DNA of 64,000 nucleotides. It comes from an uncultured Clostridia bacterium. GTDB lineage: Bacteria > Bacillota > Clostridia > TANB77 > CAG-508. Within the stretch, counting starts at the first letter, position 1. Each line of letters starts with the position of its first letter. The position numbers were made by a program, and so were the translations under genes. Of the stretch, positions 1,069 to 60,986 are shown piece after piece. The notes under the pieces were generated by a model that was given only the letters and a program-made list of their open reading frames with translations, had not been told where the DNA came from and did no database searches. The DNA is taken from positions 16,459 to 80,458 of the forward strand of contig CALXUC010000003.1 in NCBI GenBank assembly GCA_944391575.1. Direction: 5' to 3'.

Positions 1069-3486
1069 TTAATTTTCTTCCATATTTAATTCCACATTAT
1101 ACATTTCAAAATTTTCATCTATTATTTTGCTATCTAAATTTTCTATAAATAATGTTGCTCTAAAGTCTTTTATTGATGCGTCTATAGCGTCTTTTAATTC
1201 TTTACTAACTCCGATAGATAAATTTTTAATAGGTGTTTTTAATGATACATTGCTATTTGTTTTTGCTCCTCTTGCTTGGCTTATAATTTCTATCATTTGT
1301 TCACCATATTTTATCTCATTTTCAAAGTTAAAGTTTAATGGCTCTATTACTGTTGTATGAATTGAATTGTTATTGTGGTATAATTCTTGGAATATTTCTT
1401 CTGTTATAAATGGGAAGAATATACTAAAGTCTTGTAATAATTTATATAGTAATGTATAAACTGTTTTTTGTCCACTATATCTTGGTATGTCTCCAAATTC
1501 TTCTGGTCTATATAATCTATGTTTTACTATTTCTATATAATTATCACAGAATTCCCAGAAGAATTTTTCCAATATATTTAATGCTAAACCTACTTCATAT
1601 TCTTCTAAATAATTTATAAATTGTTTTTCCATTTCTTGGAAACGTCCTAATATCCACTTATCTACATATTCATAATCACTAAATTCTTTATCTTCGTAAT
1701 CTTGTAAATGCATTTCTATAAATTTTGATACGTTCCAAATTTTATTTACTAATTTTTTACCACGTAAAAAAGTTTCTTCACTATATACTATATCTGAACC
1801 TAATCTTCCTGTTCCTGCCCAATATCTTACTACATCTGCTGAATATTGTTTTATTAAATCCATTGGTTCGTGTTTGCTATTGCCTTTGCTTTTACTTATT
1901 TTTTCACCTTTTCCTGCCATAGCAAATCCTGAAATCATTACATTATCCCATGGTCTTTGACCAAAGTGATAAAAGCTTTTTACTATTGTATAGAAGTCCC
2001 ATGTTCTTATAATTTCACTTGCATTTGTTCTTAAGCTCATAGGTTTTAATATATCTTCATAATTTTCTTCTTCACCATATCTCATATTTATAAGTGGTGT
2101 TACTGATGATGTTGCCCAAGTATCCATTATATCTGTTTCTGGCATAAATTCTGTTCCACCACATTTTGGACATTTATCGCATTTTGGTGAGTCTACTAGA
2201 GGATTTACTGGTAAATCTTCTTTTTTTGCAAATATAGGTTCTCCACATTTTTTACAGTACCATACTGGGAATGGTACTCCAAAATATCTTTGTCTTGATA
2301 TACACCAGTCCCAAGCTATGTTATTAACCCATTCATCGTATCTAGCTTTCATGTGTGCTGGATGCCATTTTATCTCATTTCCTATTTTCAAGAAATCTTC
2401 TTTATGGCTCATTGTATCTATGAACCATTGATTCATTACAGCATATTCGACTTCTTTACCACATCTTTCATGTGTTTGAACTTCATGCTCTAATTCTTCA
2501 ATTTTTACAACAAATCCGCCTTCTTGTAAATCTTCAATTATATTTTTTCTAGCTTCTTTTATTTTTAATCCACCATACTTTGGAACTGAATCTACTATTT
2601 TTCCGTCACTAGTAAATATATATTTTAGTGGTAAATTATACTTTTTCCACCACTCTATATCAGTTTGATCTCCAAAAGTACAGCACATTACTATTCCTGT
2701 ACCTTTATCTATAGCGACTTTTTCGTCTCCCATTATAGGAACTTCCACATCTATTACTGGGATATGCGCTGTTTTACCTATTAAGTGTTTATGCTTTTCA
2801 TCATTTGGATTAACAAATACACTTACTATTGCAGGTAACAATTCTGGTCTTGTTGTTGCTATTGTAAATTCTTCATTATCTTCTACTGTTTTAAAATTTA
2901 TATAATTAAATGTTGTTTTTATTGTTTTAGTTTCAAGTTCTGCTTGTGCTATTGATGTTAAACATTCATTACACCATAACGCAGGACTTTCTTTATGGTA
3001 ACAATGTCCTTTTTCTACTAAATCTAAAAAAGATTTTTGACTTATTTTTATTGTAGATGGTGCAACTGTTTTGTAATGTATATTCCAATCTGTGCTTACG
3101 CCCATTCTACTAAATAATTCTTGAAATTCTTCTTCATATTTATCTGTTATTTCATAACATAATTTTGAAAATTCTTCTCTACCAATTTCATGTGCTCTTT
3201 TACCTTGCTCTTTTTCTACTAATCTTTCACTAGGTAAGCCATTATCGTCAAATCCAAAAGGATAGAATATATTATATCCCCTTAATCTTTTATATCTTGC
3301 TAACATTTCTGTTTGTGTATATGAGAAAACGTGTCCTATATGGATTCTTCCACTTACTGTTGGTGGTGGTGTGTCTATTGAGAATACTTCTTTTCCGTTT
3401 CTTTTAAATTCATATATTTTATTTTCTTTCCAATAATCCATCCATTTTATTTCTTTTTCTTCTGCATTATACTTTTTGTCTAACAT
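1069..3486 (-). CDS. valS: class Ia aminoacyl-tRNA synthetase, most likely valine--tRNA ligase (short form)
   Basis: 805-aa ORF with PPPTVSGRIHIGHV (HIGH), KISKSKGN (KMSKS) and Cys knuckles CKKCG / CPKCG. The Val-versus-Ile/Leu call rests on remembered family signatures, not a search. Confidence 0.75.
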   Translation of the reverse strand: MLDKKYNAEEKEIKWMDYWKENKIYEFKRNGKEVFSIDTPPPTVSGRIHIGHVFSYTQTEMLARYKRLRGYNIFYPFGFDDNGLPSERLVEKEQGKRAHEIGREEFSKLCYEITDKYEEEFQELFSRMGVSTDWNIHYKTVAPSTIKISQKSFLDLVEKGHCYHKESPALWCNECLTSIAQAELETKTIKTTFNYINFKTVEDNEEFTIATTRPELLPAIVSVFVNPNDEKHKHLIGKTAHIPVIDVEVPIMGDEKVAIDKGTGIVMCCTFGDQTDIEWWKKYNLPLKYIFTSDGKIVDSVPKYGGLKIKEARKNIIEDLQEGGFVVKIEELEHEVQTHERCGKEVEYAVMNQWFIDTMSHKEDFLKIGNEIKWHPAHMKARYDEWVNNIAWDWCISRQRYFGVPFPVWYCKKCGEPIFAKKEDLPVNPLVDSPKCDKCPKCGGTEFMPETDIMDTWATSSVTPLINMRYGEEENYEDILKPMSLRTNASEIIRTWDFYTIVKSFYHFGQRPWDNVMISGFAMAGKGEKISKSKGNSKHEPMDLIKQYSADVVRYWAGTGRLGSDIVYSEETFLRGKKLVNKIWNVSKFIEMHLQDYEDKEFSDYEYVDKWILGRFQEMEKQFINYLEEYEVGLALNILEKFFWEFCDNYIEIVKHRLYRPEEFGDIPRYSGQKTVYTLLYKLLQDFSIFFPFITEEIFQELYHNNNSIHTTVIEPLNFNFENEIKYGEQMIEIISQARGAKTNSNVSLKTPIKNLSIGVSKELKDAIDASIKDFRATLFIENLDSKIIDENFEMYNVELNMEEN

Positions 3487-32936: not shown

Positions 32937-33290
32937 TTAAAACTGTCCACGATTGATTTTTTTTATTGTATAATTAGTTGTTGAAAAAGTGTTACACAAA
33001 TATTCTACAACCTTTTCAATATTAATACTTATGTCACATAAAAAAATATCAATAGCAGCATACTGATGTTCTGGCCATGTATGAATTGTAAAATGTGATT
33101 CTTTTAATACCAACACTCCACTAACTCCATATGGCTTGAATTGATGAAAGCAGCTCTTTACTACATTAAAATTACCAATCTTTCCTGCTTTCGTCATTAC
33201 ATCTTTTATTTTAGAAATTGAAATAAGATATTCATCGTTACAGTCGTAAAAATCCAATATGTAATGTACACCCAATATATCATTCATCAT
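32937..33290 (-). CDS. speD: pyruvoyl-dependent S-adenosylmethionine decarboxylase proenzyme (SpeD/SpeH type)
   Basis: 117 aa with GVSGVLVLKESHFTIHTWPEHQYAAIDIFLCD, which carries the E-S self-cleavage site and HTWPE. This closely parallels Bacillus SpeD. Confidence 0.85.
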   Translation of the reverse strand: MMNDILGVHYILDFYDCNDEYLISISKIKDVMTKAGKIGNFNVVKSCFHQFKPYGVSGVLVLKESHFTIHTWPEHQYAAIDIFLCDISINIEKVVEYLCNTFSTTNYTIKKINRGQF

Positions 33291-34368
33291 AATTCTCCTC
33301 CATAATCATTTGAAAATAGTCTACTGAATAATCTCTAAAAAATTTTTTTGGTTCTTCAATCCAGCTTCTTACCTCTTCCCATAATTTATTCATCCCTTGA
33401 ACACCATAATAATTTATAAAGTTATCATAGCTTATAAATGCTTTATTAATATCTTTATATGCATCGTTTTTTAAGTATAAACTTTTTGAAAACTTAGCAC
33501 CTGACCAATCTAATATAACAGGAGCAAAAAGTCTTATAGGGAATTCGTTAAAACCTAATTTTACAAGCCCTTCCGTATGTATTCTTTGTGCCCAAATACC
33601 AGACCAATCACTACCATCCAACATTATTGTTAAAGTATTATTCTTCTTATCTTCTTCTAACATGGCCGCACCTTTAGTTAAATCTCTGAATTGAGTATTT
33701 AAATCCACGTATTCTTTATTACTTTCTGTAACATTTATTTCATATGAACCATGAATTGGGCAATCTCCCTTAAGAAATATCTCATTTTTATTATGTTTTT
33801 CTTTTAATTTTTTTATATTTTTTTTACCAAGTCCACATATTGGGCAGATTGTTCTAACATGCAAATCAGACGAAGATGGAAATAACAGTTTTTTAAAATA
33901 CTCCTTTTCATTTATAATATTTATAAGAGTTCTTCTTACAAATTTATTGCTTTGAAATTCATTATAACTTCTTATATAATATGGAAGATTTGCATAAGTT
34001 GATAAGATTTCTAAAATCTCTTTAAATCGTCTCATATTAGCTAGTTCTTTAGTTTCATGATTATAATAACTATGACGTTGATCTTTATAAAAAATCTCAC
34101 CATTATATTCAACTATTTCTGCTGGACTATTCTCTAATTCATCGAATTGAACTTCAGTTTGCACTTTCAAATCATCTCTAATCTTATTTGCCAGTGCAAA
34201 AGCGGACATAAGTGTTGTTATAGTTCCTAAATGCGGACTGCTATTTGGTTGTGCTGATGTATTTATAATTATCTTTTTTTGATTTCTATACTTATATAAT
34301 ATTAAATCGCTAAGTTTGTTAGTTATATGTGCCATTCCAACTGGTGGATAGAATACTTCTCTTATCAC
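33280..34368 (-). CDS. truncated class-I aminoacyl-tRNA-synthetase-like ligase (catalytic domain only)
   Basis: 362 aa with a HIGH-like NSSPHLGT, a KMSKS-like GAKFSKS and a Zn knuckle CPICG…CPIHG. There is no room for an anticodon-binding domain. GTG start with RBS GGAGGT, overlapping the upstream stop by 1 nt. Confidence 0.5.
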   Translation of the reverse strand: MIREVFYPPVGMAHITNKLSDLILYKYRNQKKIIINTSAQPNSSPHLGTITTLMSAFALANKIRDDLKVQTEVQFDELENSPAEIVEYNGEIFYKDQRHSYYNHETKELANMRRFKEILEILSTYANLPYYIRSYNEFQSNKFVRRTLINIINEKEYFKKLLFPSSSDLHVRTICPICGLGKKNIKKLKEKHNKNEIFLKGDCPIHGSYEINVTESNKEYVDLNTQFRDLTKGAAMLEEDKKNNTLTIMLDGSDWSGIWAQRIHTEGLVKLGFNEFPIRLFAPVILDWSGAKFSKSLYLKNDAYKDINKAFISYDNFINYYGVQGMNKLWEEVRSWIEEPKKFFRDYSVDYFQMIMEENYDE

Positions 34369-35420
34369 TATTTACCTCCATGATATACTACCATAATTTC
34401 TTTTTTAAATACTTCTTTTCCAATTTTAACAAATTTCTTTTCTAATTTATTTTTTTCCCCTTTTGTAAAAGGAATAATCTCATTTATTTCAAAAATTATT
34501 TTATTCCTTCTCAATTTATAATGCCATGTTCCCTTTAATCCATTAGATACTAATATTACACCTTCAACTTGTCCAGCCGCTTTCCAAATTAGTGATTTAT
34601 TATTTCCATTTAATACCCATTCCTTATCTTCATAGCTAATTAAAAGTGGATCAAACTTGCCAAGAATAATTGGATAATTTATTTTTATTTCATTAAAATC
34701 CGGCAATGATTCATAATAATATTTTTTATTATTAATATATATATACTTTGCAGATTTAATATACTCATCTAAGTCCTCTTTGATTTCTTTATATTTTAAT
34801 CCAGACCAATGCAAGAAATCTTGCCTTGTTGCCGGTCCATAATATTTAAAATACCTATAAATCAAATCGGAAATTGGCTTTTTATTGTCTATAATATCAT
34901 TTTGCTTATACAATTTTTTATCTTCTTTGTTAAGAATACCATACAGCACCTTATAATACGTAGCTAAAATTAATAAACCACTCCATTCCATTATCTCTTT
35001 TGATTTGTATTTGGGTATAATATTTTGAATTTCTTTTTTTTCTATCATATTATTTTTATTCTTATCTAAAAATCTGACGATCGAATTTAAATATTCACTA
35101 TAATCTAATTCTAAATGTTTAGCATATTTATATACCCAATTATCACTTTCGCGATATAAATCTGAAATTAGATTATAATCATTTTTATGATATATATGTA
35201 ATGTTGTCCTTTGTCCCCAACTTTTAATTAAATTTGTATCAGTAAAAATATTATTTTTATGCTTTATCCTATTATATATAGATATTAATGCATAAGTTTG
35301 ATATTGGCATTGTATACCAATTAATGATTGAACACATATGTCAGCATTTTCAAACCTATTTAATAGTCCATTATTATACAACCTTAACTTTTGCAAGTCT
35401 AAATTTGAATAATCACTCAT
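34368..35420 (-). CDS. HTH_42 winged-helix protein, AlkZ/YcaQ-family DNA glycosylase-like
   Basis: 350 aa with IGIQCQYQTYALISIYNR (Q37-C38-Q39), WGQRTTLH and YFKYYGPATRQDFLHWSGL. This pattern matches the 'winged helix DNA-binding domain' / YcaQ family. Confidence 0.55.
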   Translation of the reverse strand: MSDYSNLDLQKLRLYNNGLLNRFENADICVQSLIGIQCQYQTYALISIYNRIKHKNNIFTDTNLIKSWGQRTTLHIYHKNDYNLISDLYRESDNWVYKYAKHLELDYSEYLNSIVRFLDKNKNNMIEKKEIQNIIPKYKSKEIMEWSGLLILATYYKVLYGILNKEDKKLYKQNDIIDNKKPISDLIYRYFKYYGPATRQDFLHWSGLKYKEIKEDLDEYIKSAKYIYINNKKYYYESLPDFNEIKINYPIILGKFDPLLISYEDKEWVLNGNNKSLIWKAAGQVEGVILVSNGLKGTWHYKLRRNKIIFEINEIIPFTKGEKNKLEKKFVKIGKEVFKKEIMVVYHGGK

Positions 35421-36108
35421 GTTTTATCGCATATATAAGTACAGAATCATAGTTTTCGTCATTAGCTATTGAGACCTTCTTTACATTTAAAATCTTACAA
35501 TTACGTTTTCTAGCAAAATTTTGCACAATTTTTTCAGATAGATAATTATTATTAAATCCCATTTTTTTACTATATGATGTAGAAAAACACCAATTAGCCC
35601 CTAACAATATTCCATCCTTTTTTAACAAATCATAAAGTTTTTCTAAATTACTTATATATTCCCTTTCATTTTTACATAATCCTAATAATCCAAATTGTGA
35701 GACATTGTTATATTTAATGGTACTATTCATAGATGAGCATAAAACGTCACATATTAAATAATTGATATTTGTCTTAAGAACATCATTAAAATCTTTATTA
35801 TACTTCTTTAACGGATATTCATAGCTTTTGGGGTATATTTCTTTTTTTCTAATCTGTTCATTAATAAAAAAAGCTTCTTTAGAAATATCTACACACAATA
35901 CTTTTTCAATATTTTTAAATGCAATTAACCAAAAATATATATTGCTCCCGCTACCAAAGTCAATTAACGTTCCATTAGAAGAATAATTATTTATTAATTC
36001 TAAAATATCTTCTGTCCCTTGGTCTTCTCTAAATGGTGCACCATAATAATCGTAAAAATATCTTAACTGCTTACTATATTCTTCTTTGTTTATCCTATCA
36101 AAATCCAT
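35413..36108 (-). CDS. class I SAM-dependent methyltransferase-fold protein
   Basis: 231 aa with motif I LIDFGSGSNIYF, then acidic CVDIS. Confidence 0.55.
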   Translation of the reverse strand: MDFDRINKEEYSKQLRYFYDYYGAPFREDQGTEDILELINNYSSNGTLIDFGSGSNIYFWLIAFKNIEKVLCVDISKEAFFINEQIRKKEIYPKSYEYPLKKYNKDFNDVLKTNINYLICDVLCSSMNSTIKYNNVSQFGLLGLCKNEREYISNLEKLYDLLKKDGILLGANWCFSTSYSKKMGFNNNYLSEKIVQNFARKRNCKILNVKKVSIANDENYDSVLIYAIKHE

Positions 36109-36144
36109 AATCAGTCACACGTTCAATCTCATAGTTTTATTAAT

Positions 36145-36906
36145 CTATTCGATATGCTCCTTTCTATTTTTATCAAAAATTCGTTTTAACACAATAATAT
36201 ATGTTCCATTATCATATTCAACTTTTTCTTGTATTAAAAATTTATTACTTTTTTCTATTATTTTTTCGACTAAATTATATTCATAGTTGTATAATCTAAA
36301 ATTTGTTTCAAAAAGAAAATTATCTTTATCAAAGTATCGATACCCAAAATCAATATAATTTTTATGATGTATATGCTTATTGTACCTTTTAATATTTAAC
36401 CCTTTAAATGTAAATCGTTTTGAAAAATAAAATTTATTATCTTCAATTTTTGAATCATAGTATGGCAAAAACTTTCCATAATTAAAATTAAATAAATCTA
36501 AAACAATATATTCTGATACAAGATAACTATTATTTAAAAAAGTTTTAAATTCGGAATAGTTTAAATATTGCATCCCTTGCTCTAAAACAAAAATACAATC
36601 ACATTTAATTTTTAACTTATTAATATCTTTCATATCTTGAACATATGTTTTTACATTTTTTATCTTTCTTCTTTTTTTTTGCTCATTTATAAAATCTATC
36701 ATGTTTTTTTCAATATCTATAAAATATGATTCTTTAAATAACTTTGAATAATCCTCTAAATATAATCCGCTAGCACAAGGACAAAGAACCGCATAATTAA
36801 TATAGTATTTGCTTTTAATTGCTTTTAGTAATTTAATATTCTTCATGTCTTTTTTTACTTCTCTACTATAAAAAGCAGCTCTTTCTTTATATGTTATTTT
36901 CTTCAT
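36145..36906 (-). CDS. divergent class I methyltransferase-fold protein
   Basis: 253 aa with a variant motif I AVLCPCASGLYL, then FIDIE. The assignment is tentative. Confidence 0.35.
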   Translation of the reverse strand: MKKITYKERAAFYSREVKKDMKNIKLLKAIKSKYYINYAVLCPCASGLYLEDYSKLFKESYFIDIEKNMIDFINEQKKRRKIKNVKTYVQDMKDINKLKIKCDCIFVLEQGMQYLNYSEFKTFLNNSYLVSEYIVLDLFNFNYGKFLPYYDSKIEDNKFYFSKRFTFKGLNIKRYNKHIHHKNYIDFGYRYFDKDNFLFETNFRLYNYEYNLVEKIIEKSNKFLIQEKVEYDNGTYIIVLKRIFDKNRKEHIE

Positions 36907-37990
36907 AATAATCCCAATGTTCTTTTATAACTTGATGACAAATTTTACCTTTATCAAATATCCTTCCCCTTATAACTTCATGGCTATTCTTCCCTAATAG
37001 TTCATAATCTAGTATTTTTATTATCCATTCTTTTGCATTTGATGAATATGCTTCAGTCGTTGACTTTGGATAAGCAGACGGAAGGTTATCAATTTTACAG
37101 CATACGATTCCATTATCTGATATATATATCGGATTATCTAAAGTGGTATTTTTATAGATACTTGGTATGTAACCGCTCCCATACCCACAGGTCACATCAA
37201 TTACTACTGTTCCTGGTTTTAGCAAATTAAATATTTCTTTTGTTATAATTGGCTCAGTATCAAATGTTGAAATAAGAATTGCACCAATTATAGCGTCCAT
37301 TTTAGGTAAAATCTCTTTCAAATTTTTTTCAGTTGATTCTATACAATGAATACCTTCATCCATGTAAACACTATTCTTTTTTAACTTATTAATATTACTA
37401 CCAAAAACATAAACGTCATTACCCAGTTTTGAAGCAAGTTTAATTGCTGCTCCACCTACATTCCCATAGCCAATTACTGCAATTTTTGATTTTACACAAC
37501 CACGAATCCCAAACAAGGATTTACCTGCTCCACCATATTGTTTTTGTTGATAAAAATTAGCATACATTACAGCCATTTTCCCAGCAATTTCTCCGCCCGG
37601 ATAAGCCATTGGGAAATATCCGTCATCAGTTTCTATAAATTCATATGTATATGCTGTTACTTTCTTTTTTTGTAATTCTTTTAATAATTCATAGTTTCCT
37701 TCAGCATGAAATATTGCAGCAATTTTGGTATTTTCATTTAAATATTTATACTCGTCTTTTGTTGGGTATTTATATTTTAAAATAAAATCACTATTTTTCC
37801 AACAATATTCTTTATCTTTAATTATTGCTCCATGTTTTTTATATTCATCATCTAAAAAGCCAAGTTCTTTACCTGCACCTTCTTCTACATACACTTCATA
37901 TTTTTTTGTTAATTCGTCAATATCATTTGGTAATAGAATAACTCTATTTTCTCCATTAATTGTTTCCTTTAATATGGCGACTTTTTTCAT
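36887..37990 (-). CDS. alanine dehydrogenase / PNT-family NAD(P) dehydrogenase (AlaDH-, opine- or CEOS-like)
   Basis: ENRVILLP, the Rossmann motif IAVIGYGNVGGAAIKLA, VVIDVTCGYGSG and IDNLPSAYPKSTT are present. The ATG at 37990 has RBS AGGGGTGA and a 4-nt overlap with the upstream stop. Confidence 0.6.
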   Translation of the reverse strand: MKKVAILKETINGENRVILLPNDIDELTKKYEVYVEEGAGKELGFLDDEYKKHGAIIKDKEYCWKNSDFILKYKYPTKDEYKYLNENTKIAAIFHAEGNYELLKELQKKKVTAYTYEFIETDDGYFPMAYPGGEIAGKMAVMYANFYQQKQYGGAGKSLFGIRGCVKSKIAVIGYGNVGGAAIKLASKLGNDVYVFGSNINKLKKNSVYMDEGIHCIESTEKNLKEILPKMDAIIGAILISTFDTEPIITKEIFNLLKPGTVVIDVTCGYGSGYIPSIYKNTTLDNPIYISDNGIVCCKIDNLPSAYPKSTTEAYSSNAKEWIIKILDYELLGKNSHEVIRGRIFDKGKICHQVIKEHWDYYEENNI

Positions 37991-38793
37991 ACTTTCACCC
38001 CTACTATACAAATATATTTTCCTCGATTACACAACTTTTCATCTTGTATATATTGCTTTTCTATATTAAAAATATAATCATAATCATCTGTTAATATTTT
38101 ACTTATTGAATATTTATTTGAAGTCAATGTCTCTTCTACACCAATTAATGAAATAACTGGATAGCCACATTTAAAAATAGATTCAATACCATACTGCTTA
38201 TGAATTCTTTCCAGCTCATCTATCTTATTAAAATGCAATTTAGGAACATATTGTGATAGTGAACCAGTATTATTATTTATTACCAATTTTACTTCACAAG
38301 TGTTTCCTTTTAATATATTTAAAGCCAAGCCATTATAAAAATTTTCACCTACAGAAATTGATATACCACCGCTCTTCAAATATGATGATACAATTTTAAT
38401 TAATTGATCAGCATTACAAAAAAATGGTAATACATATATATTTAAAACAATATCAAACTGCTCATCTAACTTTAAATCATTAATATCAGAGTTAACTATT
38501 TTAACACGTTTTTTGAATTTGCTGAGTTTTTGTTTTGCTTGATTAAGCATATTATCAGAGAAATCAACCAATACGCATCTTGTGTTGTCAAACTCTCGCA
38601 AAATTTTATAAGCCCATTCTCCGGTTCCAGCCCCCAACTCTAAAAATACTATTGGTTTTTCTTTAGGAATATGTTTTTTTATAATTTCCCACAATAAATC
38701 ATCAGCTAATTTCCAATATACTTTTTTGTTATTTTCATCATATTTTGTTGATATATTATCAAAATGCTTTAACACTATTTCTTTCTCACCCAT
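37987..38793 (-). CDS. class I SAM-dependent methyltransferase
   Basis: 268 aa with the clear motif I FLELGAGTGEWA, motif II VLVDFS and FDIVLNIYVL. Confidence 0.75.
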   Translation of the reverse strand: MGEKEIVLKHFDNISTKYDENNKKVYWKLADDLLWEIIKKHIPKEKPIVFLELGAGTGEWAYKILREFDNTRCVLVDFSDNMLNQAKQKLSKFKKRVKIVNSDINDLKLDEQFDIVLNIYVLPFFCNADQLIKIVSSYLKSGGISISVGENFYNGLALNILKGNTCEVKLVINNNTGSLSQYVPKLHFNKIDELERIHKQYGIESIFKCGYPVISLIGVEETLTSNKYSISKILTDDYDYIFNIEKQYIQDEKLCNRGKYICIVGVKV

Positions 38794-38795
38794 AA

Positions 38796-39242
38796 TTAAA
38801 TTCTCTCTCTAGATTCTAAAAAAGATAACAACTCTTTTTTTTTATCTAAACTATAATATGATTGTGGGACAATAAAGTTATGAAACTTTTGCTGTAACTC
38901 GCTTAATTTGACTTCCTTTATTGGAATTATTTTTTCTATAGGAATTGCATATCCTATATTATTATGTAAATATTCCATCATACTATTGTAGCTTTCTGGT
39001 TCTTCTTGTTCTGATATAGTAGCTATAGTCTGTGCGTCACCTATTATTGGTTGTCCAAATCTAATTTTAGCAACTATACTTTTTTTGGTTTTTGAAATAT
39101 AAATATATGCGTCACTCGGTTCTTTTAAATATCTTGTTCTGTATTCGTAATGCTTTTTTCCCTGTATCATTGCATTATAATATTCTTCTCTTAAACTCAT
39201 TAAAACACATTTAGGTTCACAGAATGATAATTGTCTCTCCAT
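38796..39242 (-). CDS. ASCH (PUA-like) domain protein
   Basis: 148 aa. MSLREEYYNAMIQGKKHYEYRTR matches the ASCH N-terminal pattern (xIKxEYxxxIlxGxKxxExR). Confidence 0.5.
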   Translation of the reverse strand: MERQLSFCEPKCVLMSLREEYYNAMIQGKKHYEYRTRYLKEPSDAYIYISKTKKSIVAKIRFGQPIIGDAQTIATISEQEEPESYNSMMEYLHNNIGYAIPIEKIIPIKEVKLSELQQKFHNFIVPQSYYSLDKKKELLSFLESRERI

Positions 39243-39244
39243 TT

Positions 39245-39847
39245 TTACTCCCTCTCTTCTATTACTTTCTTTTGATTTATTAATTTAATATTTTTTATTA
39301 CAATATCAGCTACTTCTTCTGGTAATAAGGCTTCTGTATCAATTACGATATATTTAAACCCAATATTTTGCAAAAATTTTTCCATCTTCTCATAACCATC
39401 CTTATACATTGCACAATTAGATAAATCTCTATCTTGTTTATCTCTTTCATAAATTCTTTTCATTCTAGTAGAGACACTTGCCTTTAGTAAAACAGTTAAA
39501 TCCGGTACACCACATAATTTTATCAACTCATAATGTAATGGAATTGTTTCTTTATTTCCATGCCAATAATAATTTGAAACAAAATGCCTATCATAAACTA
39601 TGTTCTTTTCTTGATTACATCTTGTTCCATATAATAAGCCCATTCCATAAAATAAAGTCATAAGAGCCTCATCATTTGTCTTGTACAAATTCCATTCTAA
39701 ATCCTTTAATCTAGATTCACTTAAATTTAATCCTTCAAATAAAAACTTAAATGGCTTATCAAGATATTTATATCCTAACTTTTGCGCTAAAATTTTTGAA
39801 ACCGTCGTCTTTCCTGAACCATCCATTCCTTCAATTGCAATTCTCAT
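39245..39847 (-). CDS. thymidylate-kinase-fold P-loop (d)NMP kinase-like protein
   Basis: 200 aa with IAIEGMDGSGKTT (the Tmk-type P-loop), a DRH motif (YDRHFVSNYYW) and a lid-like RMKRIYERDK. Confidence 0.55.
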   Translation of the reverse strand: MRIAIEGMDGSGKTTVSKILAQKLGYKYLDKPFKFLFEGLNLSESRLKDLEWNLYKTNDEALMTLFYGMGLLYGTRCNQEKNIVYDRHFVSNYYWHGNKETIPLHYELIKLCGVPDLTVLLKASVSTRMKRIYERDKQDRDLSNCAMYKDGYEKMEKFLQNIGFKYIVIDTEALLPEEVADIVIKNIKLINQKKVIEERE

Positions 39848-39872
39848 AAATATTCCTCCAATTCTAACGGCT

Positions 39873-40340
39873 TTAATACAATTTTAAATTCCATCTTAAA
39901 TTTTCATCTGTATTTTCGTTATCTTCATATACCATTTCATTAATGTTTGCATCATTAAAGACCTCTAATAATTTATCAAAGTCAGTAGCCAATTTTTTAT
40001 CTTTCAATTCTTCTTCATCAATCCAATATAACTTTCCCTCTGATGTTTCTGAAATTATTTCTCCGCTATAATCATCTGATATAAATAAAATAACTAGTTG
40101 CCTTTCTTTTTCTTTTTTACTATACCAATCTTTTACTCCACATATTCTCACATTATTTAGTTTTAGACCTGTTTCCTCATACACTTCTCTTTTTACAGAG
40201 GGAACAATGCTTTCTCCGCTCTCAATTTTACCTCCAGGAAATGCAATTCCTTGCCAACTTTTTATTCTTTCTTGAACTAGTACTTGTTTTGTTTTAGGAT
40301 TAACTATTTTACACATATTCATTAATTTAATATTTTCCAT
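39873..40340 (-). CDS. NUDIX hydrolase (MutT-like)
   Basis: Nudix box GGKIESGESIVPSVKREVYEETGL. I prefer the ATG at 40340, which has RBS GGAGTGAGG. The ORF track extends to 40361. Confidence 0.8.
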   Translation of the reverse strand: MENIKLMNMCKIVNPKTKQVLVQERIKSWQGIAFPGGKIESGESIVPSVKREVYEETGLKLNNVRICGVKDWYSKKEKERQLVILFISDDYSGEIISETSEGKLYWIDEEELKDKKLATDFDKLLEVFNDANINEMVYEDNENTDENLRWNLKLY

Positions 40341-40441
40341 TACCTCACTCCTCACATACATTTATATCAAAAAGAAATCACAATAAAGGACCTAACTTTT
40401 TAAAATAAATCAAAAAATAACAAATATGATAATTACAATAT

Positions 40442-40470
40442 ATCTTAACATGCTTAACAAATAATGTCAA
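40442..40470 (-). promoter_or_regulatory. candidate sigma-A promoter of the 10-gene operon
   Basis: Minus strand reads TTGACA - 17 nt - TAAGAT, about 100 nt upstream of the Nudix start. Confidence 0.4.
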
Positions 40471-40506
40471 TACCGCAAGACTTATTTCGTAAATGAATGT
40501 AAAAAT

Positions 40507-40541: not shown

Positions 40542-40612
40542 AAGTTTGATGATATTTTCACTAATTTTTTAGGGAATAAAAAATACTAGAGTGTGCGAAC
40601 TCTAGTATTTTA
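40542..40612 (+). ncRNA. candidate ~70-nt small RNA (promoter-to-terminator unit)
   Basis: Bounded by the consensus promoter and the hairpin AATACTAGAG/CTCTAGTATT plus TTTT. The only ORF inside is a 7-codon one without an RBS. Confidence 0.25.
40578..40611 (-). terminator. bidirectional terminator after the replication-relaxation gene
   Basis: Stem AATACTAGAG / CTCTAGTATT with an 8-nt loop, an A6 run before and T4 after. It lies 6 nt past the stop at 40617. Confidence 0.65.
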
Positions 40613-40616
40613 CTTA

Positions 40617-41555
40617 TTAATTTAAAATCGCTATATCTGGATTTTCTATTTTATATTTTTTAGTTTCTTTATCTAAAACGAATTTAACAAGAGTTTTTCC
40701 TAACTTTTCTGAAATTTGTTTTAAATCTGTTGTAAAGTATAATGGCATATCTTTTATTTCTACTTTATTTACTACGACAGTTTTAAATGTTTCTGCCATA
40801 TGCTTATCATCTTCGCATACAAATATTATAAGTGGTTTTTGTGGGAATCCACCATCCATTGGTACGAAGTTATCATAAAAATCTTGATATAATCTCATTT
40901 TATCTACTAATTTGTTTTGCCAATCTTCTTCTCTTCTTACAACTTCAAATAAAAAGTCTAATTCTTTTTTGTCTCTTTCTAATTTTACACAACCGCCTGT
41001 TACTTTAAATTTTTTCCCCATCATTTTCGCATTTAATGTTGGTTTTGGAGCATAATCTTTGGCTAATCCTACTTTTTCTAAATATGCTATTATAACTTGA
41101 TTTCCAGCTAATCTTTTCTTAAACATTTCTATTGGTTTTGTATTATCAGTTGGTTGCCACTTACATTCTACTTCTTTAGAATTTAATAAGTATTTTCCCA
41201 TTTTTTCCATACAGTAAATTCTAAAAATGCCTTGTCCTTCTTCTGATTCAAAAAAATATCTTGTTAACATTTTTAATTTTACCATTTGTTCTAATTTTGT
41301 ATTTACTCTATCTTGTGTATCTATATCAACATTTTCTATTTTTAGCATTTGAAAAATTTGGCGTGATGTCATAAATTCAAATTTATTAATTAATTCCAAA
41401 ATTTTAAAATGTACATCTGTAATTTGACCATTATTTATTCTAGAAATAATTTGATTTATTGATACAAATCCATCCTTTCCAGCAAATTTTTTTATTTCTC
41501 CTTCTCTCATTGCAAAAGGTGATACTTTTGCTTTAATTTCAGCATCTGTTACCAT
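40617..41555 (-). CDS. replication-relaxation (Replic_Relax) family protein, plasmid/ICE-associated
   Basis: 312 aa. HFKILELINKFEFMTSRQIFQML…KLEQMVKLKMLTRYFF…FRIYCMEKMGKYLL fits the wHTH pattern of that family. Confidence 0.5.
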   Translation of the reverse strand: MVTDAEIKAKVSPFAMREGEIKKFAGKDGFVSINQIISRINNGQITDVHFKILELINKFEFMTSRQIFQMLKIENVDIDTQDRVNTKLEQMVKLKMLTRYFFESEEGQGIFRIYCMEKMGKYLLNSKEVECKWQPTDNTKPIEMFKKRLAGNQVIIAYLEKVGLAKDYAPKPTLNAKMMGKKFKVTGGCVKLERDKKELDFLFEVVRREEDWQNKLVDKMRLYQDFYDNFVPMDGGFPQKPLIIFVCEDDKHMAETFKTVVVNKVEIKDMPLYFTTDLKQISEKLGKTLVKFVLDKETKKYKIENPDIAILN

Positions 41556-55748: not shown

Positions 55749-57494
55749 CTATTTTATAAGCACAGCTTTTATTCTTCTAACTCCAGCAGAACTTGCCTCT
55801 TCTTTTTTAATTTTAAATTTTCCCATATTTCCAGTTCTTGCAACGTGTGGGCCACCACAAATTTCTTTCGAGAAATCTCCTATTGTATATACTTTTACTT
55901 TATCTCCATACTTATTAGTAAATAAGCCGATTGCTCCGCTTTTTTTAGCTTCTTCTAATGTCATTTCTTCACAAGTTACTGGTAAATCTCTTTTAATTTG
56001 CTCATTTACTATTCTTTCTACTTCTTCTAATTGTTCTTTAGTAAGTTTTTCTGGATGTTTAAAGTCAAATCTTAATCTTTCTTCTGTAATATTTGAGCCA
56101 CTTTGTGTTGCATGTTCCCCTAGAACTATTTGCAAAGCTTTATGTAAAAGATGAGTCGCTGTATGGTATGCTATTGTTTTTTCATTTTGGTCTGCCATAC
56201 CGCCTTTAAATTTTTGTGTTGAACCTGCTCTAGATAATTCTTGGTGTTTTGCAAATAATTCTTTAAATTCATTCATATTAATAGTTTTTCCATGCTCTTT
56301 TGCCAATTCTTCTGTCATTTCTGGAGGAAATCCATATGTATCATATAATCTAAATACTAATTCTCCAGGTATTTCTTTATCTTTTACTTCATCAATATGT
56401 TTTAAAAATTCCTTTTCGCCTTTTTCTAATGTTGTAACAAACTTATCTTTTTCTTTTAATAATTCTTTTATTACAATCTCTCTATTCTCTTCTAATTCAG
56501 GATACATATTATTTATACTATTTACCATAGTATTTGCAATAAGTTCTAAATTACTAAACTCTATTTCTAATTTTCTTAAATGACGTACTAACCTACGTAT
56601 TAATCTTCTTAAAATATAACCTTGGTCTACATTGCTTGGTCTTACACCATCCACCATAAGCATTAAACTAGCTCTCACATGGTCTGATATTATTCTTGCA
56701 CTTGATACATTATAATTTTTAGATAATTCTTTTATTTTATCCATTGTTGGCTTAAATATTTCTGTATCAAATGGTGTTTCTTTTCCTTGTAATAACATCG
56801 TAGCTCTCTCTAAACCTAAACCAGTATCTACATTTTTTTGTTCTAAAGGTCTAATTCCGTTTTTATCTTTATAATATTGCATAAATACATTATTCCAAAT
56901 CTCTACATATTTACCACAGCCACAAGATGGATTACATTCTTCAGAGCATTTTTCTTTTCCAGTATCATAAAAAATCTCTGTATCTGGTCCACAAGGTCCT
57001 TCTTCTCCAGCTATCCACCAGTTATCATCTTTTCCAAAGAAATATATTCTTTCTCTTGGTATACCACATTTTTCCCAAATTGCAGCAGCTTCTTCATCTC
57101 TTGATGCATCCTCATCACCTTTAAAGCAAGTTACTGATAATTTTTCAACAGGTATCTCTAAATCTTTTGTTAAAAACTCATAACTCATGCTTATAGATTC
57201 TTCTTTAAAATAATCTCCTATAGACCAATTTCCTAACATTTCAAAAAATGTTAAATGTCTATTATCTCCTACATCTTCAATATCGCCTGTTCTTAAACAT
57301 TTTTGGTAATCTGTAATTCTTTTTCCCATAGGATGTTTTTCTCCTAAAAGATATGGTACTAATTGTTGCATTCCAGCTGATGTAAATAATACTGATGAAT
57401 CATTTTCAGGTACAAGTGGTGCACTTGGTATTACTGCATGTCCATGTCTTTTAAAAAAATCTAAATATTTGTTTCTCAATTCTATTGCTTTCAT
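55749..57494 (-). CDS. alaS: alanine--tRNA ligase, short form (catalytic + editing domains, no C-Ala domain)
   Basis: 581 aa with FTSAGMQQLVPY, FFEMLGNWSIGDYFK, the editing motifs HTATHLLH and CGGPHV. It ends at RRIKAVLIK. Confidence 0.75.
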   Translation of the reverse strand: MKAIELRNKYLDFFKRHGHAVIPSAPLVPENDSSVLFTSAGMQQLVPYLLGEKHPMGKRITDYQKCLRTGDIEDVGDNRHLTFFEMLGNWSIGDYFKEESISMSYEFLTKDLEIPVEKLSVTCFKGDEDASRDEEAAAIWEKCGIPRERIYFFGKDDNWWIAGEEGPCGPDTEIFYDTGKEKCSEECNPSCGCGKYVEIWNNVFMQYYKDKNGIRPLEQKNVDTGLGLERATMLLQGKETPFDTEIFKPTMDKIKELSKNYNVSSARIISDHVRASLMLMVDGVRPSNVDQGYILRRLIRRLVRHLRKLEIEFSNLELIANTMVNSINNMYPELEENREIVIKELLKEKDKFVTTLEKGEKEFLKHIDEVKDKEIPGELVFRLYDTYGFPPEMTEELAKEHGKTINMNEFKELFAKHQELSRAGSTQKFKGGMADQNEKTIAYHTATHLLHKALQIVLGEHATQSGSNITEERLRFDFKHPEKLTKEQLEEVERIVNEQIKRDLPVTCEEMTLEEAKKSGAIGLFTNKYGDKVKVYTIGDFSKEICGGPHVARTGNMGKFKIKKEEASSAGVRRIKAVLIK

Positions 57495-59764: not shown

Positions 59765-60986
59765 TTACCTATACATCATTCCGCTATTCGAAATTTTAAT
59801 TACTATTGCAACACCTATTAAAAACATTGCTGTTATAACAAAGAGGATTCCTAGCAAAACCTTAAATGTATCACCTACTTGCTCTAATAATTTTACAATT
59901 TTTTTATCTGCAATAGGCTCTGCTAAAGCTGTTGCAATACTATATGTAATTGTTATTAAGCTCAGTTTTATAAGTGGTACTATAGCTATACTTATAATTA
60001 CCAAAATACCTACTATTCCTACTGCATTTTTTAAAACAACTGCACTACCTAAAACAGTGTCTATAGAATCACCTAATGCTTTACCGCACTACAGGTACTA
60101 AACTCGAAACTGCTGCTTTGGCAGTTTTAGCTGTTATACCATCTATGCTACTGCTTAAAGTTCCTTCTAATGATAAAACACCTACAAAAACAGTTAGAAC
60201 TATTCCTAAAATCCAAACTACTGTTGATTTAAAAAATTTAGATAATTTCCCTATTTCTATTTTTTCTGAAATATTTGATACTATTGATAATACTGTACCT
60301 ACTAAAATTAATGGTATTATAACTATAGAAATTAAATTTCCTATAAATGCTATAAAAAACAATATTAACGGTTGTACAAGTCCAGCAGATACAATACTTC
60401 CAGTACTTATCATTAAAGTAATAAGAAGTGGAACTAAGGTATATAAAAATCCTATCAAACTATCTATTGTTGTAGTTATTAATGATAAAATTTCTGAAAA
60501 ATTCGATAAAATAATTGTTACTATTAAAATATATTGTACAAAGTATGCGACTTTTGCTGCACTATTATTCTCTAAATTTTCTGCTATAGTTTTTACTATA
60601 CTTACAATAACAATTACAGCTAAAATCATTGCTAATAATCTTATAGTTAATATTATTTCTTCACCAACTAAATTTAAGATTTTATTAAAAATACCTTCAT
60701 TATCTACTTTCCCAGTAATAGCAGATGCCAATATTTCTGATGTATCTATATCTGGGAACGTATTTTTAGTATATTCATCCGCTTCTTTTATAAAAGTAGA
60801 AATATTTAGTGTAGATTTCTGTTCATTTATTATTTCATCTAAAACTTCTTCTCTTATCTCTTCTGTTGACTCTTCTGAATTTATTTCTGTTGCATATGTA
60901 ATTATAGGGGTAAATATATGTAGAGCTAGAAAAACTATAATATATATAAGTAAAAATTTCTTTAACAGTTTTTTCATATAACTCAT
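59765..60986 (-). pseudogene. spoIIIAE: stage III sporulation protein AE, interrupted by a 1-nt frameshift at ~60084-60091
   Basis: The upstream frame ends …AVSSLVPVVR* at 60081. The next frame reads GKALGDSIDTVLGSAVVLKNAVGIVGILVIISIAIVPLIK… into the 59765-60004 ORF. Deleting one nt from GTAGTGCGGTAAA rejoins a normal ~406-aa SpoIIIAE. Confidence 0.75.

Follow-up and report, generated by a model that had tools for sequence, protein, structure and literature searches.

An AlkZ-like HTH_42 protein, predicted to be an N-glycosylase, is a core component of a mobile gene cassette of gut Firmicutes and is coupled to an NNMT-like methyltransferase

What would a relative of a self-resistance DNA glycosylase do in an operon of a gut bacterium? 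The question is raised by the open reading frame (ORF) at 34368-35420 of a 64-kb stretch of DNA from an uncultured Clostridia bacterium (the window, by which the whole of these 64 kb is meant), belonging to the 26% GC chromosome of a spore-forming Firmicute. The first-pass annotation of this DNA had assigned the ORF to the HTH_42 family, with a Q-x-Q catalytic motif as in Streptomyces AlkZ, and had proposed that it confers self-resistance within a biosynthetic operon. The characterised HTH_42 enzymes are all DNA glycosylases for N7-alkylguanine adducts or crosslinks, and the members of the AZL subfamily located in gene clusters are antitoxins to the cluster product (PMC9040887, PMC13303869, PMC8934636). 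The annotation had also stated that AZL genes are enriched in biosynthetic gene clusters, for which the demonstration is limited to Streptomyces (PMC9040887).

The ORF lies on the minus strand, starts with ATG and encodes 350 amino acids (aa) with a pI of 9.3; a plus-strand reading of the same coordinates was rejected, its translation being stop-ridden. The protein is a member of the HTH_42/AlkZ-like (PF06224) superfamily. A Pfam scan gave a single near-full-length match, PF06224 AlkZ-like, with E=5e-22 and 79.4 bits (cutoff 25.9), in which positions 1-322 of the 329-position profile are aligned. In a phmmer search of the PDB sequences the sole match was AlkZ (5uuj), with I-Q-C-Q of the query placed on V-Q-A-Q of AlkZ, and a profile built from 24 relatives found the same entry with E=2.8e-33 over residues 2-304. 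The AlphaFold2 (AF2) model, computed from an alignment of 26 sequences (database homologues), reached a pLDDT of 94 and a pTM of 0.92 and has the fold of the family, three winged helices and a C-terminal beta-subdomain. Foldseek of this model against the PDB ranked AlkZ (5uuj, E=3.4e-18, TM 0.77) above the DNA-bound AlkX/YcaQ structure (9zd6, E=2.4e-9, TM 0.74), and these two stand alone, the third-ranked match reaching only E=0.2. The family assignment of the first-pass annotation is hence upheld by the profile search and by the structural comparison alike. Both peptides that it had quoted are present: SLIGIQCQYQ corresponds to residues 32-41 and contains Q37-C38-Q39, and YFKYYGPATRQDFLHWSGL corresponds to residues 190-208, which is mid-protein and not C-terminal as had been claimed.

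Q37-C38-Q39 aligns exactly on Q37 and Q39 of AlkZ, whose motif is Q-A-Q. Once the 4-residue shift between the chain index of the PDB entry and the native numbering is allowed for, the aligned positions coincide with the catalytic Q37/Q39 of the AlkZ literature; the motif is AlkZ-like and not of the YcaQ-like form Q-x-D, as the annotation had it. Both glutamines are invariant in alignments of 24-26 homologues with identities down to 20%, together with R13, R51, R71, T73, H75, P196, D201, F202, L253, D257 and W299, and the other family-wide motifs, GQRxTLH, YGPAT..F..W, GxFDxxL and AG...G.W, are retained. The published subfamily motifs are Q-Phi-D for YQL, (Q/H)-Phi-Q for AZL and (H/Q)-Phi-(S/T)-(D/E) for AZL2 (PMC9040887). 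Q37-C38-Q39 follows the AZL pattern at the AlkZ Q37/Q39 positions; Q-C-Q-Y departs from the AZL2 pattern, and the protein is set apart from YQL by its Q-C-Q motif, by a fold closer to AlkZ than to AlkX and by its association with a gene cluster. As judged from its sequence the protein is AZL-type by the published definitions, with the caveat of a Cys as the middle residue.

The gene belongs to a run of ten genes on the same (minus) strand, from 40361 to 32937, that are separated by gaps of at most 36 nt or overlap. The features are given below in operon order, the enclosing block last (MT, methyltransferase; SAM, S-adenosylmethionine; AlaDH, alanine dehydrogenase; aaRS, aminoacyl-tRNA synthetase; dNMP, deoxynucleoside monophosphate).

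40442-40470, minus strand: promoter-like site TTGACA-17-TAAGAT with an upstream TG (consensus scan, AT-rich region; inside the conserved block)
39873-40361, minus strand: NUDIX hydrolase, first gene (Pfam NUDIX, E=1.3e-17)
39245-39847, minus strand: dTMP/dNMP-kinase-like P-loop kinase, 200 aa (Thymidylate_kin, E=2e-16; PADLOC PDC-M51B and VakA)
38796-39242, minus strand: ASCH (PUA-like) domain protein, 148 aa (weak Pfam ASCH; PDB 5guq, E=5e-5)
37987-38793, minus strand: MT1, UbiE/BioC/CmoM-like class I SAM methyltransferase, 268 aa (Pfam/NCBIfam)
36887-38011, minus strand: divergent AlaDH-family NAD(P) oxidoreductase, 374 aa (AlaDh_PNT_N and AlaDh_PNT_C)
36145-36906, minus strand: MT2, class I SAM methyltransferase, 253 aa (Methyltransf_25, E=7.8e-7; conserved in the cassette)
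35413-36108, minus strand: MT3, NNMT/PNMT/TEMT-like class I SAM methyltransferase, 231 aa (PF01234, 25.9 bits, cutoff 25)
34368-35420, minus strand: AlkZ-like (AZL-type) HTH_42 protein, predicted glycosylase, 350 aa (Pfam, profile, AF2/Foldseek)
33280-34368, minus strand: truncated class-I aaRS-like ligase, 362 aa (alignments, AF2, Foldseek; no Pfam family)
32937-33290, minus strand: SAM decarboxylase (Bacillus type), 117 aa, last gene (AdoMet_dc, E=7e-37)
32946-40472, minus strand: cassette unit, one colinear 7.5-kb block (blastn against locus L005)

The stop of MT3 overlaps the start of the AlkZ-like gene by 8 nt (ATGAGTGA), and the stop of the latter overlaps the GTG start of the aaRS-like gene by 1 nt (TAGTG), a GGAGG lying shortly before it; the translational coupling described in the annotation is present on both sides. 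The promoter and terminator scan as a whole was uninformative in DNA of this composition (82 sites against 75 expected), and of its sites only the one within the conserved block is listed above.

That the ten genes form a unit follows from the comparison with locus L005 (loci and lineages are designated here by L numbers). By blastn the window shares with it a single high-scoring segment pair with 81.7% DNA identity and no similarity beyond; the shared block consists exactly of the promoter-like site and the ten genes, and the genomic context of L005 differs. The block of the window is flanked by spoVA genes on one side and a Replic_Relax gene on the other. In L005-L007 the block and two serine recombinases are located within a 12-kb insertion that splits a penicillin-binding-protein (PBP) gene at about residue 350. 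The identical ten-gene set is found in L001-L023 and L085-L102, and all of the closest AlkZ-like homologues (73-82% identity), which come from uncultured human-gut 'Bacilli' metagenome-assembled genomes (MAGs) and Firmicutes bacterium CAG:822, sit in this same array. In human-gut metagenomes single cassette proteins occur on hundreds of contigs.

Several observations concern these integration sites. The insertion of L005-L007 (3893-15934 in L005) holds the cassette, a resolvase and a large serine recombinase, the split PBP being of PBP_dimer/Transpeptidase/PASTA composition, and it resembles the intervening elements of spore-formers that carry a recombinase. An intact homologue of this PBP, 636 aa long, lies directly beside the cassette in L001 (13491-15401). 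The Replic_Relax (replication-relaxation) family gene of the window (40617-41555, minus strand) directly precedes the cassette and has a strong hairpin (40580-40611) after its end; it is outside the shared block but hints at a further mobile-element remnant. The MAG CAKOHQ01 holds two cassette copies on different contigs (L009 and L023, 82% and 79% identity to the window protein), which could be a true duplication or a strain mixture.

More distant versions, in other Firmicutes, Acinetobacter and Pseudoalteromonas, keep the membership and shuffle the order, as in L024 (MT1, AlkZ-like, aaRS-like, AlaDH-like, MT2, MT3). The variants L069, L072 and L083 have an extra pyruvate-kinase-like gene, CYTH and NTP_transf_5, and L066 is followed by NTP_transf_5, an adenylating enzyme, a carrier protein and two ABC exporters. 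The six-gene version of Pseudoalteromonas sp. S4498 (L070, 5138-17297: AlaDH-like, MT2, MT3, aaRS-like, ASCH, AlkZ-like) is cargo of a Tn7-like transposon, since it lies between TnsA/TnsB/TniB and TnsD/TniQ genes. Together with a conjugative element and the recombinase-borne insertion, Tn7-like cargo is one of the vehicles by which the cassette moves. Some versions carry variable tailoring genes (PhyH and Rieske oxygenases, NTP_transf_5, an adenylating enzyme with carrier protein) and some carry exporters of the ABC, DMT or MFS type, which gives the cassette family the character of small-molecule biosynthesis. NTP_transf_5, CYTH and ABC exporters recur beside L066, L069, L072, L083, L105 and L107. 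The pyruvate-kinase-like gene and the pair of dNMP kinase and NUDIX are mutually exclusive across the cassette lineages, as if they were alternative solutions for the same step, perhaps a nucleotide phosphorylation.

To count lineages, 118 aaRS-like anchors were clustered at 60% identity, which gave 34. The AlkZ-like gene is present in 10 of the 34, always with MT3 and the AlaDH-like gene and never without MT3 (Fisher p=7.6e-6, the 34 lineages being not fully independent). Four lineages have MT3 and no detected AlkZ-like gene (L104, L106, L109, L153); they are not valid counter-examples, because their contigs end 11 to ~2000 nt from the cassette. In one lineage the two genes are fused into a 582-aa protein, and such fusions, 563-584 aa long, account for at least 11 cluster representatives in the database, with the methyltransferase N-terminal and essentially no linker. 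The AlkZ-like gene therefore belongs to the core of the cassette, with which it is inherited, and is coupled to the NNMT-like methyltransferase. The link to the neighbouring genes on which the annotation had relied is thereby strengthened, operon membership being conserved across phyla.

Within the cassette lineages the AlkZ-like proteins are consistently basic (pI 8.3-9.5), and Q-x-Q is retained in 8 of them; L081 and L144 differ and have diverged flanking motifs as well. The two divergent proteins (L081 10083-11219, in an Acinetobacter baumannii chromosome; L144 8818-9972) read H-A-S-R and H-A-A-R, respectively, which is nearer to the AZL2 motif without fitting it exactly. Their GQRxTLH and GKFDPLL motifs are altered, and their cassettes carry PhyH dioxygenases and a pyruvate-kinase-like gene; that of L081 adjoins a C39-peptidase ABC exporter, an HlyD-like gene and a 68-aa ORF. 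In a neighbour-joining tree the cassette-linked proteins fall into a 'G-I-Q-x-Q-Y' clade together with stand-alone genes of Listeria, Streptococcus and Gemella; Bacteroidota, Myxococcota and Actinobacteria proteins form a distinct 'M-Q-A-Q-D' clade. The stand-alone Listeria gene adjoins rplQ. A clade shared with such housekeeping-looking Listeria and Streptococcus genes fits the recruitment of an ordinary repair enzyme.

The partners of the gene bear on what it could act upon. MT1-3 resemble small-molecule methyltransferases and not DNA methyltransferases; the MT3 profile matches NNMT structures weakly, and the MT3 homologue search returned cassette members only, at 41% identity or more. The last gene matches the NCBIfam equivalog TIGR03330 with 124 bits against a cutoff of 75.65 and, by this match, should be a bona fide SAM decarboxylase making decarboxylated SAM (dcSAM). 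The AlaDH-like protein scores 200 bits against the 392-bit cutoff of the alaDH equivalog; it retains the counterparts of Arg15, Lys74 and His95, and the AIDQGG segment with Asp270 is changed to TCGYGSG. A canonical alanine dehydrogenase was rejected on account of this score and of the replaced segment, and the protein is unlikely to be an alanine dehydrogenase. The 362-aa protein has a HIGH-like PHLG, a KMSKS-like KFSKS and a Cys/His knuckle, and its AF2 model (pLDDT 90.5) matches in Foldseek class I LysRS (1irx, E=1.9e-10) as top structure, followed by GluRS, MetRS and BshC; since the anticodon-binding domain is missing, it is regarded as a truncated class-I-aaRS-like ligase. The NUDIX protein probably starts a few codons downstream of the annotated start, because its orthologues have 155 aa. 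No NCBIfam model matches the AlkZ-like, MT3, MT2, ASCH or aaRS-like proteins, the operon holds no polyketide synthase (PKS), nonribosomal peptide synthetase (NRPS) or known genotoxin core, and Rfam at gathering thresholds found no family in the whole window, hence no riboswitch or leader hinting at a ligand. Taken together, the three methyltransferases, SAM decarboxylase, AlaDH paralogue, aaRS-like ligase, ASCH protein, NUDIX hydrolase and dNMP kinase are equally well compatible with nucleotide- and with amino-acid-derived chemistry.

We tentatively prefer, at somewhat less than an even chance, the reading in which the protein is a glycosylase dedicated to the cassette, for repair or self-protection against N-alkylpurine damage from the cassette's own SAM/dcSAM chemistry. 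We infer its DNA substrate, the N-alkylpurine lesion and its protective role because the known HTH_42 enzymes excise cationic N7-alkylguanine from duplex DNA and the cluster AZLs are antitoxins. A catalytically competent AZL-type N-glycosylase would have been recruited as a dedicated part of a mobile cassette whose chemistry appears centred on SAM, with three methyltransferases and the predicted source of dcSAM. The cassette product, or NNMT-like MT3 itself, would create cationic N-alkylpurine lesions of the N7-alkylguanine type in the host DNA; the AlkZ-like enzyme would excise them from the host's own DNA, base-excision repair would complete the process, and the NUDIX hydrolase would in parallel sanitise the nucleotide pool. 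The full-length family match, the aligned Q-x-Q, the kept motifs, the AlkZ-nearest fold and the basic pI speak for this reading, as does co-inheritance with the cassette through rearrangements and across phyla, only alongside MT3. The NUDIX hydrolase, or a non-canonical purine NTPase in a sister cassette of Pantoea, fits protection against a base or nucleotide analogue.

Several points weigh against such a protective role. Where the published motif has an aliphatic residue in the middle (PMC9040887), the window protein has Cys and its relatives Ser or Ala. In two proteobacterial-type lineages Q-x-Q is replaced by H-A-S (L081) or H-A-A (L144), and therefore canonical catalysis is not kept in every lineage. 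The commonest ten-gene form has neither an exporter nor a recognised genotoxin-forming enzyme. For a resistance enzyme it would be unusual to be stably fused, essentially without a linker, to a biosynthetic methyltransferase, and the fusion points instead to consecutive or joint action; a LOG-family N-glycosidase in the sister cassette suggests that cleavage of a glycosidic bond may be intrinsic to the pathway. Of the proposed self-resistance in a cluster for a DNA-alkylating product, the embedding in a conserved multi-enzyme cassette is firm, and no PKS/NRPS or known genotoxin core is present in that cassette.

The fusion, the strict dependence on MT3 and the LOG-bearing sister cassette leave room for a less probable, biosynthetic role, in which the protein would be an N-glycosidase acting on the product of MT3. 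The methyltransferase would alkylate a purine ring nitrogen, in a nucleotide or a nucleic acid, by means of SAM or dcSAM, the AlkZ-like protein would free the N-alkylpurine, and the aaRS-like ligase, the AlaDH-like enzyme and the other methyltransferases would elaborate the freed base. The cationic nucleotide so formed would belong to the substrate class that HTH_42 enzymes cleave, and the resemblance of MT1-3 to small-molecule methyltransferases speaks for this role. So do the absence of the AlkZ-like gene from cassettes lacking MT3, the 8-nt overlap and the fusion, although a 1-nt change suffices to fuse adjacent overlapping genes. Cassettes of Pantoea, L134, L154 and L155 have a LOG gene directly after the aaRS-like gene, plus a non-canonical purine NTPase and a transporter; this variant lacks MT3, AlaDH and ASCH, however, so that it may not be an equivalent pathway. 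Nucleotide-handling genes recur, in the mutually exclusive forms described above. Nevertheless, to our knowledge no HTH_42 member acts on a substrate other than duplex DNA, and the fold of the protein comprises three winged helices for DNA binding and presents a basic surface, the family motifs and the high pI being kept as well. We hold it possible, and rather doubtful, that the HTH_42 fold was co-opted for a non-repair role, forming with an NNMT-like N-methyl (or aminopropyl) transferase a two-enzyme unit that generates and releases an N-alkylated purine; part of the same claim, and equally doubtful, is that the cassette encodes a mobile, aaRS-like/ASCH-centred pathway for a nucleobase/amino-acid/SAM-derived metabolite, possibly genotoxic, in abundant gut bacteria.

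An unlikely third role would be in a nucleic-acid-directed conflict or modification system, anti-phage or inter-element, in which the aaRS-like and ASCH proteins would form the core writer/reader or toxin/antidote and MT3 with the AlkZ-like protein would mark and excise bases as effector or eraser. The aaRS-like and ASCH genes do travel in mobile cargo (phages, beside the integrase; plasmids; the Tn7-like cargo of Pseudoalteromonas; a conjugative element), gut loci place them beside a 2231-aa helicase, CYTH and NTP_transf_5, and DNA glycosylases are established anti-phage effectors. The ASCH protein, the kinase and the NUDIX hydrolase match the PADLOC candidates PDC-M11B (E=1.8e-14 for ASCH), PDC-M51B/VakA and PDC-S07, respectively, but these are candidate systems, matched at the level of shared domains only. 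The AlkZ-like protein matches no defence-system model of PADLOC-DB v2, and MT3, the aaRS-like and AlaDH-like proteins and the SAM decarboxylase have no meaningful match there; a SAM decarboxylase and an AlaDH paralogue are atypical of defence systems, and the methyltransferases lie outside the DNA-methyltransferase families. That a housekeeping alkylation-repair gene came into the operon by chance is highly improbable. The ~30%-identical relatives of Listeria and Streptococcus are indeed stand-alone chromosomal genes, but the window gene moves with its 7.5-kb block to different genomic sites, retains its partners in rearranged versions and in other phyla, and has in one lineage become part of a fusion with MT3; chance was rejected on the lineage co-occurrence with MT3 and on the single mobile block shared with L005.

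AlkZ (Streptomyces sahachiroi, azinomycin B self-resistance, 5UUJ), TxnU2/4, LldU1/5 and HedH4 belong to the same Pfam family as the window protein, have the same fold of three winged helices and a beta-subdomain with the catalytic Q-x-Q at aligned positions, and are likewise encoded amid biosynthetic-type genes (PMC9040887, PMC8934636). Identity to AlkZ is ~18%, and the host is a low-GC gut Firmicute instead of an actinomycete. Unlike AlkZ, the window protein has a Cys (Ser or Ala in relatives) in its motif, its gene has no PKS/NRPS genotoxin cluster as neighbour and is obligately paired, sometimes fused, with an NNMT-like methyltransferase, and its cassette is mobile across phyla. YcaQ/AlkX (E. 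coli, Acinetobacter baumannii, Thermobifida fusca; 9ZD6) shares the superfamily and the overall fold, and presumably the same chemistry on N7-alkylguanine, but has Q-x-D for Q-x-Q and is structurally more remote than AlkZ. Genes of the YQL subfamily are strongly conserved and occur on their own, outside clusters (PMC9040887, PMC13303869). The Listeria and Streptococcus proteins named 'crosslink repair DNA glycosylase YcaQ family protein' are of similar length and 25-32% identical, in the same clade; no cassette partner is encoded within ~10 kb of them in either direction, whereas the window gene is never without them. An analogy, and only that, is offered by purine metabolism. Caffeine biosynthesis employs 7-methylxanthosine synthase and an N-methylnucleosidase, and LOG is the cytokinin-activating phosphoribohydrolase. 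The logic would be alike, N-alkylation of a purine nucleotide followed by cleavage of the glycosidic bond, although the protein folds are unrelated to that of the AlkZ-like protein; a LOG-family gene fills the neighbouring slot in the sister cassette.

The pair of aaRS-like and ASCH genes is far more widespread than the full cassette and often occurs alone. At least 200 aaRS-like homologues were found, and the ASCH gene is their nearly universal partner. The pair is located in temperate Streptomyces phages beside the integrase, in actinomycete plasmids, in small Macrococcus plasmids and in metagenomic loci (L074, which is Streptomyces phage Mojorita, 6959-8430, with a serine integrase; L075, L077-L079, L084, L113-L164). 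In the actinomycete plasmids L077 and L079 the ORF calls give one aaRS-like-ASCH reading frame of 478-496 aa. The sister variant, with a TIGR00730/LOG nucleotide phosphoribohydrolase directly after the aaRS-like gene, is that of a Pantoea plasmid (L076, Pantoea sp. JZ29 plasmid pJZ29-01, 8264-12044) and of L134, L154 and L155. Its order is methyltransferase, aaRS-like, TIGR00730/LOG-family, DMT transporter and non-canonical purine NTP pyrophosphatase, the last two being documented for the Pantoea variant, and this composition suggests a purine-base or nucleotide product. Like GluQRS/YadB, MshC and BshC, the aaRS-like ligase is built on a class-I Rossmann catalytic domain, in which the HIGH/KMSKS-type motifs lie, and lacks an anticodon-binding domain; its nearest structure is class I LysRS, with BshC among the structural matches. 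Unlike GluQRS, MshC and BshC, it is almost always partnered by ASCH, and apparently fused to it in some actinomycete plasmids.

A full-text literature search returned work on AlkZ, YcaQ/AlkX, TxnU/LldU and Lhr and no report of HTH_42 proteins in Firmicute cassettes, of an HTH_42-methyltransferase fusion, of the aaRS-like and ASCH module or of the cassette. The AlkZ-like protein is hence a new member of a known family, and its partnership with MT3 and the cassette are previously undescribed. AZL glycosylases have served as beacons for DNA-damaging natural products, hitherto in Streptomyces only; here they mark a compact promoter-to-terminator cassette of gut bacteria. If self-protection is true, the cassette is a candidate source of a gut genotoxin or base analogue, and if the protein works in the pathway, it would be the first of the HTH_42 family with a function other than repair. 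Under either reading the methyltransferase-glycosylase fusion provides a directly testable two-enzyme hypothesis. The pair of truncated class-I-aaRS-like and ASCH proteins emerges besides as a widespread uncharacterised module.

Elsewhere in the window there are genes for SpoVAC/AD/AEB, SpoIIIAE, ComEC, RNase J, LeuRS and pseudouridine synthases. In Firmicutes, T-box leaders are usual upstream of LeuRS and AlaRS genes; the negative Rfam result includes the regions upstream of the LeuRS (1069-3486) and AlaRS-like (55749-57494) genes, and the AlaRS-like ORF has merely 581 aa. Two ORFs of 301 aa occupy the same stretch on opposite strands, 60076-60981 (plus) and 60081-60986 (minus). The minus-strand ORF is SpoIIIAE (E=4e-49), and the plus-strand ORF, which matches no family, is probably a shadow ORF.

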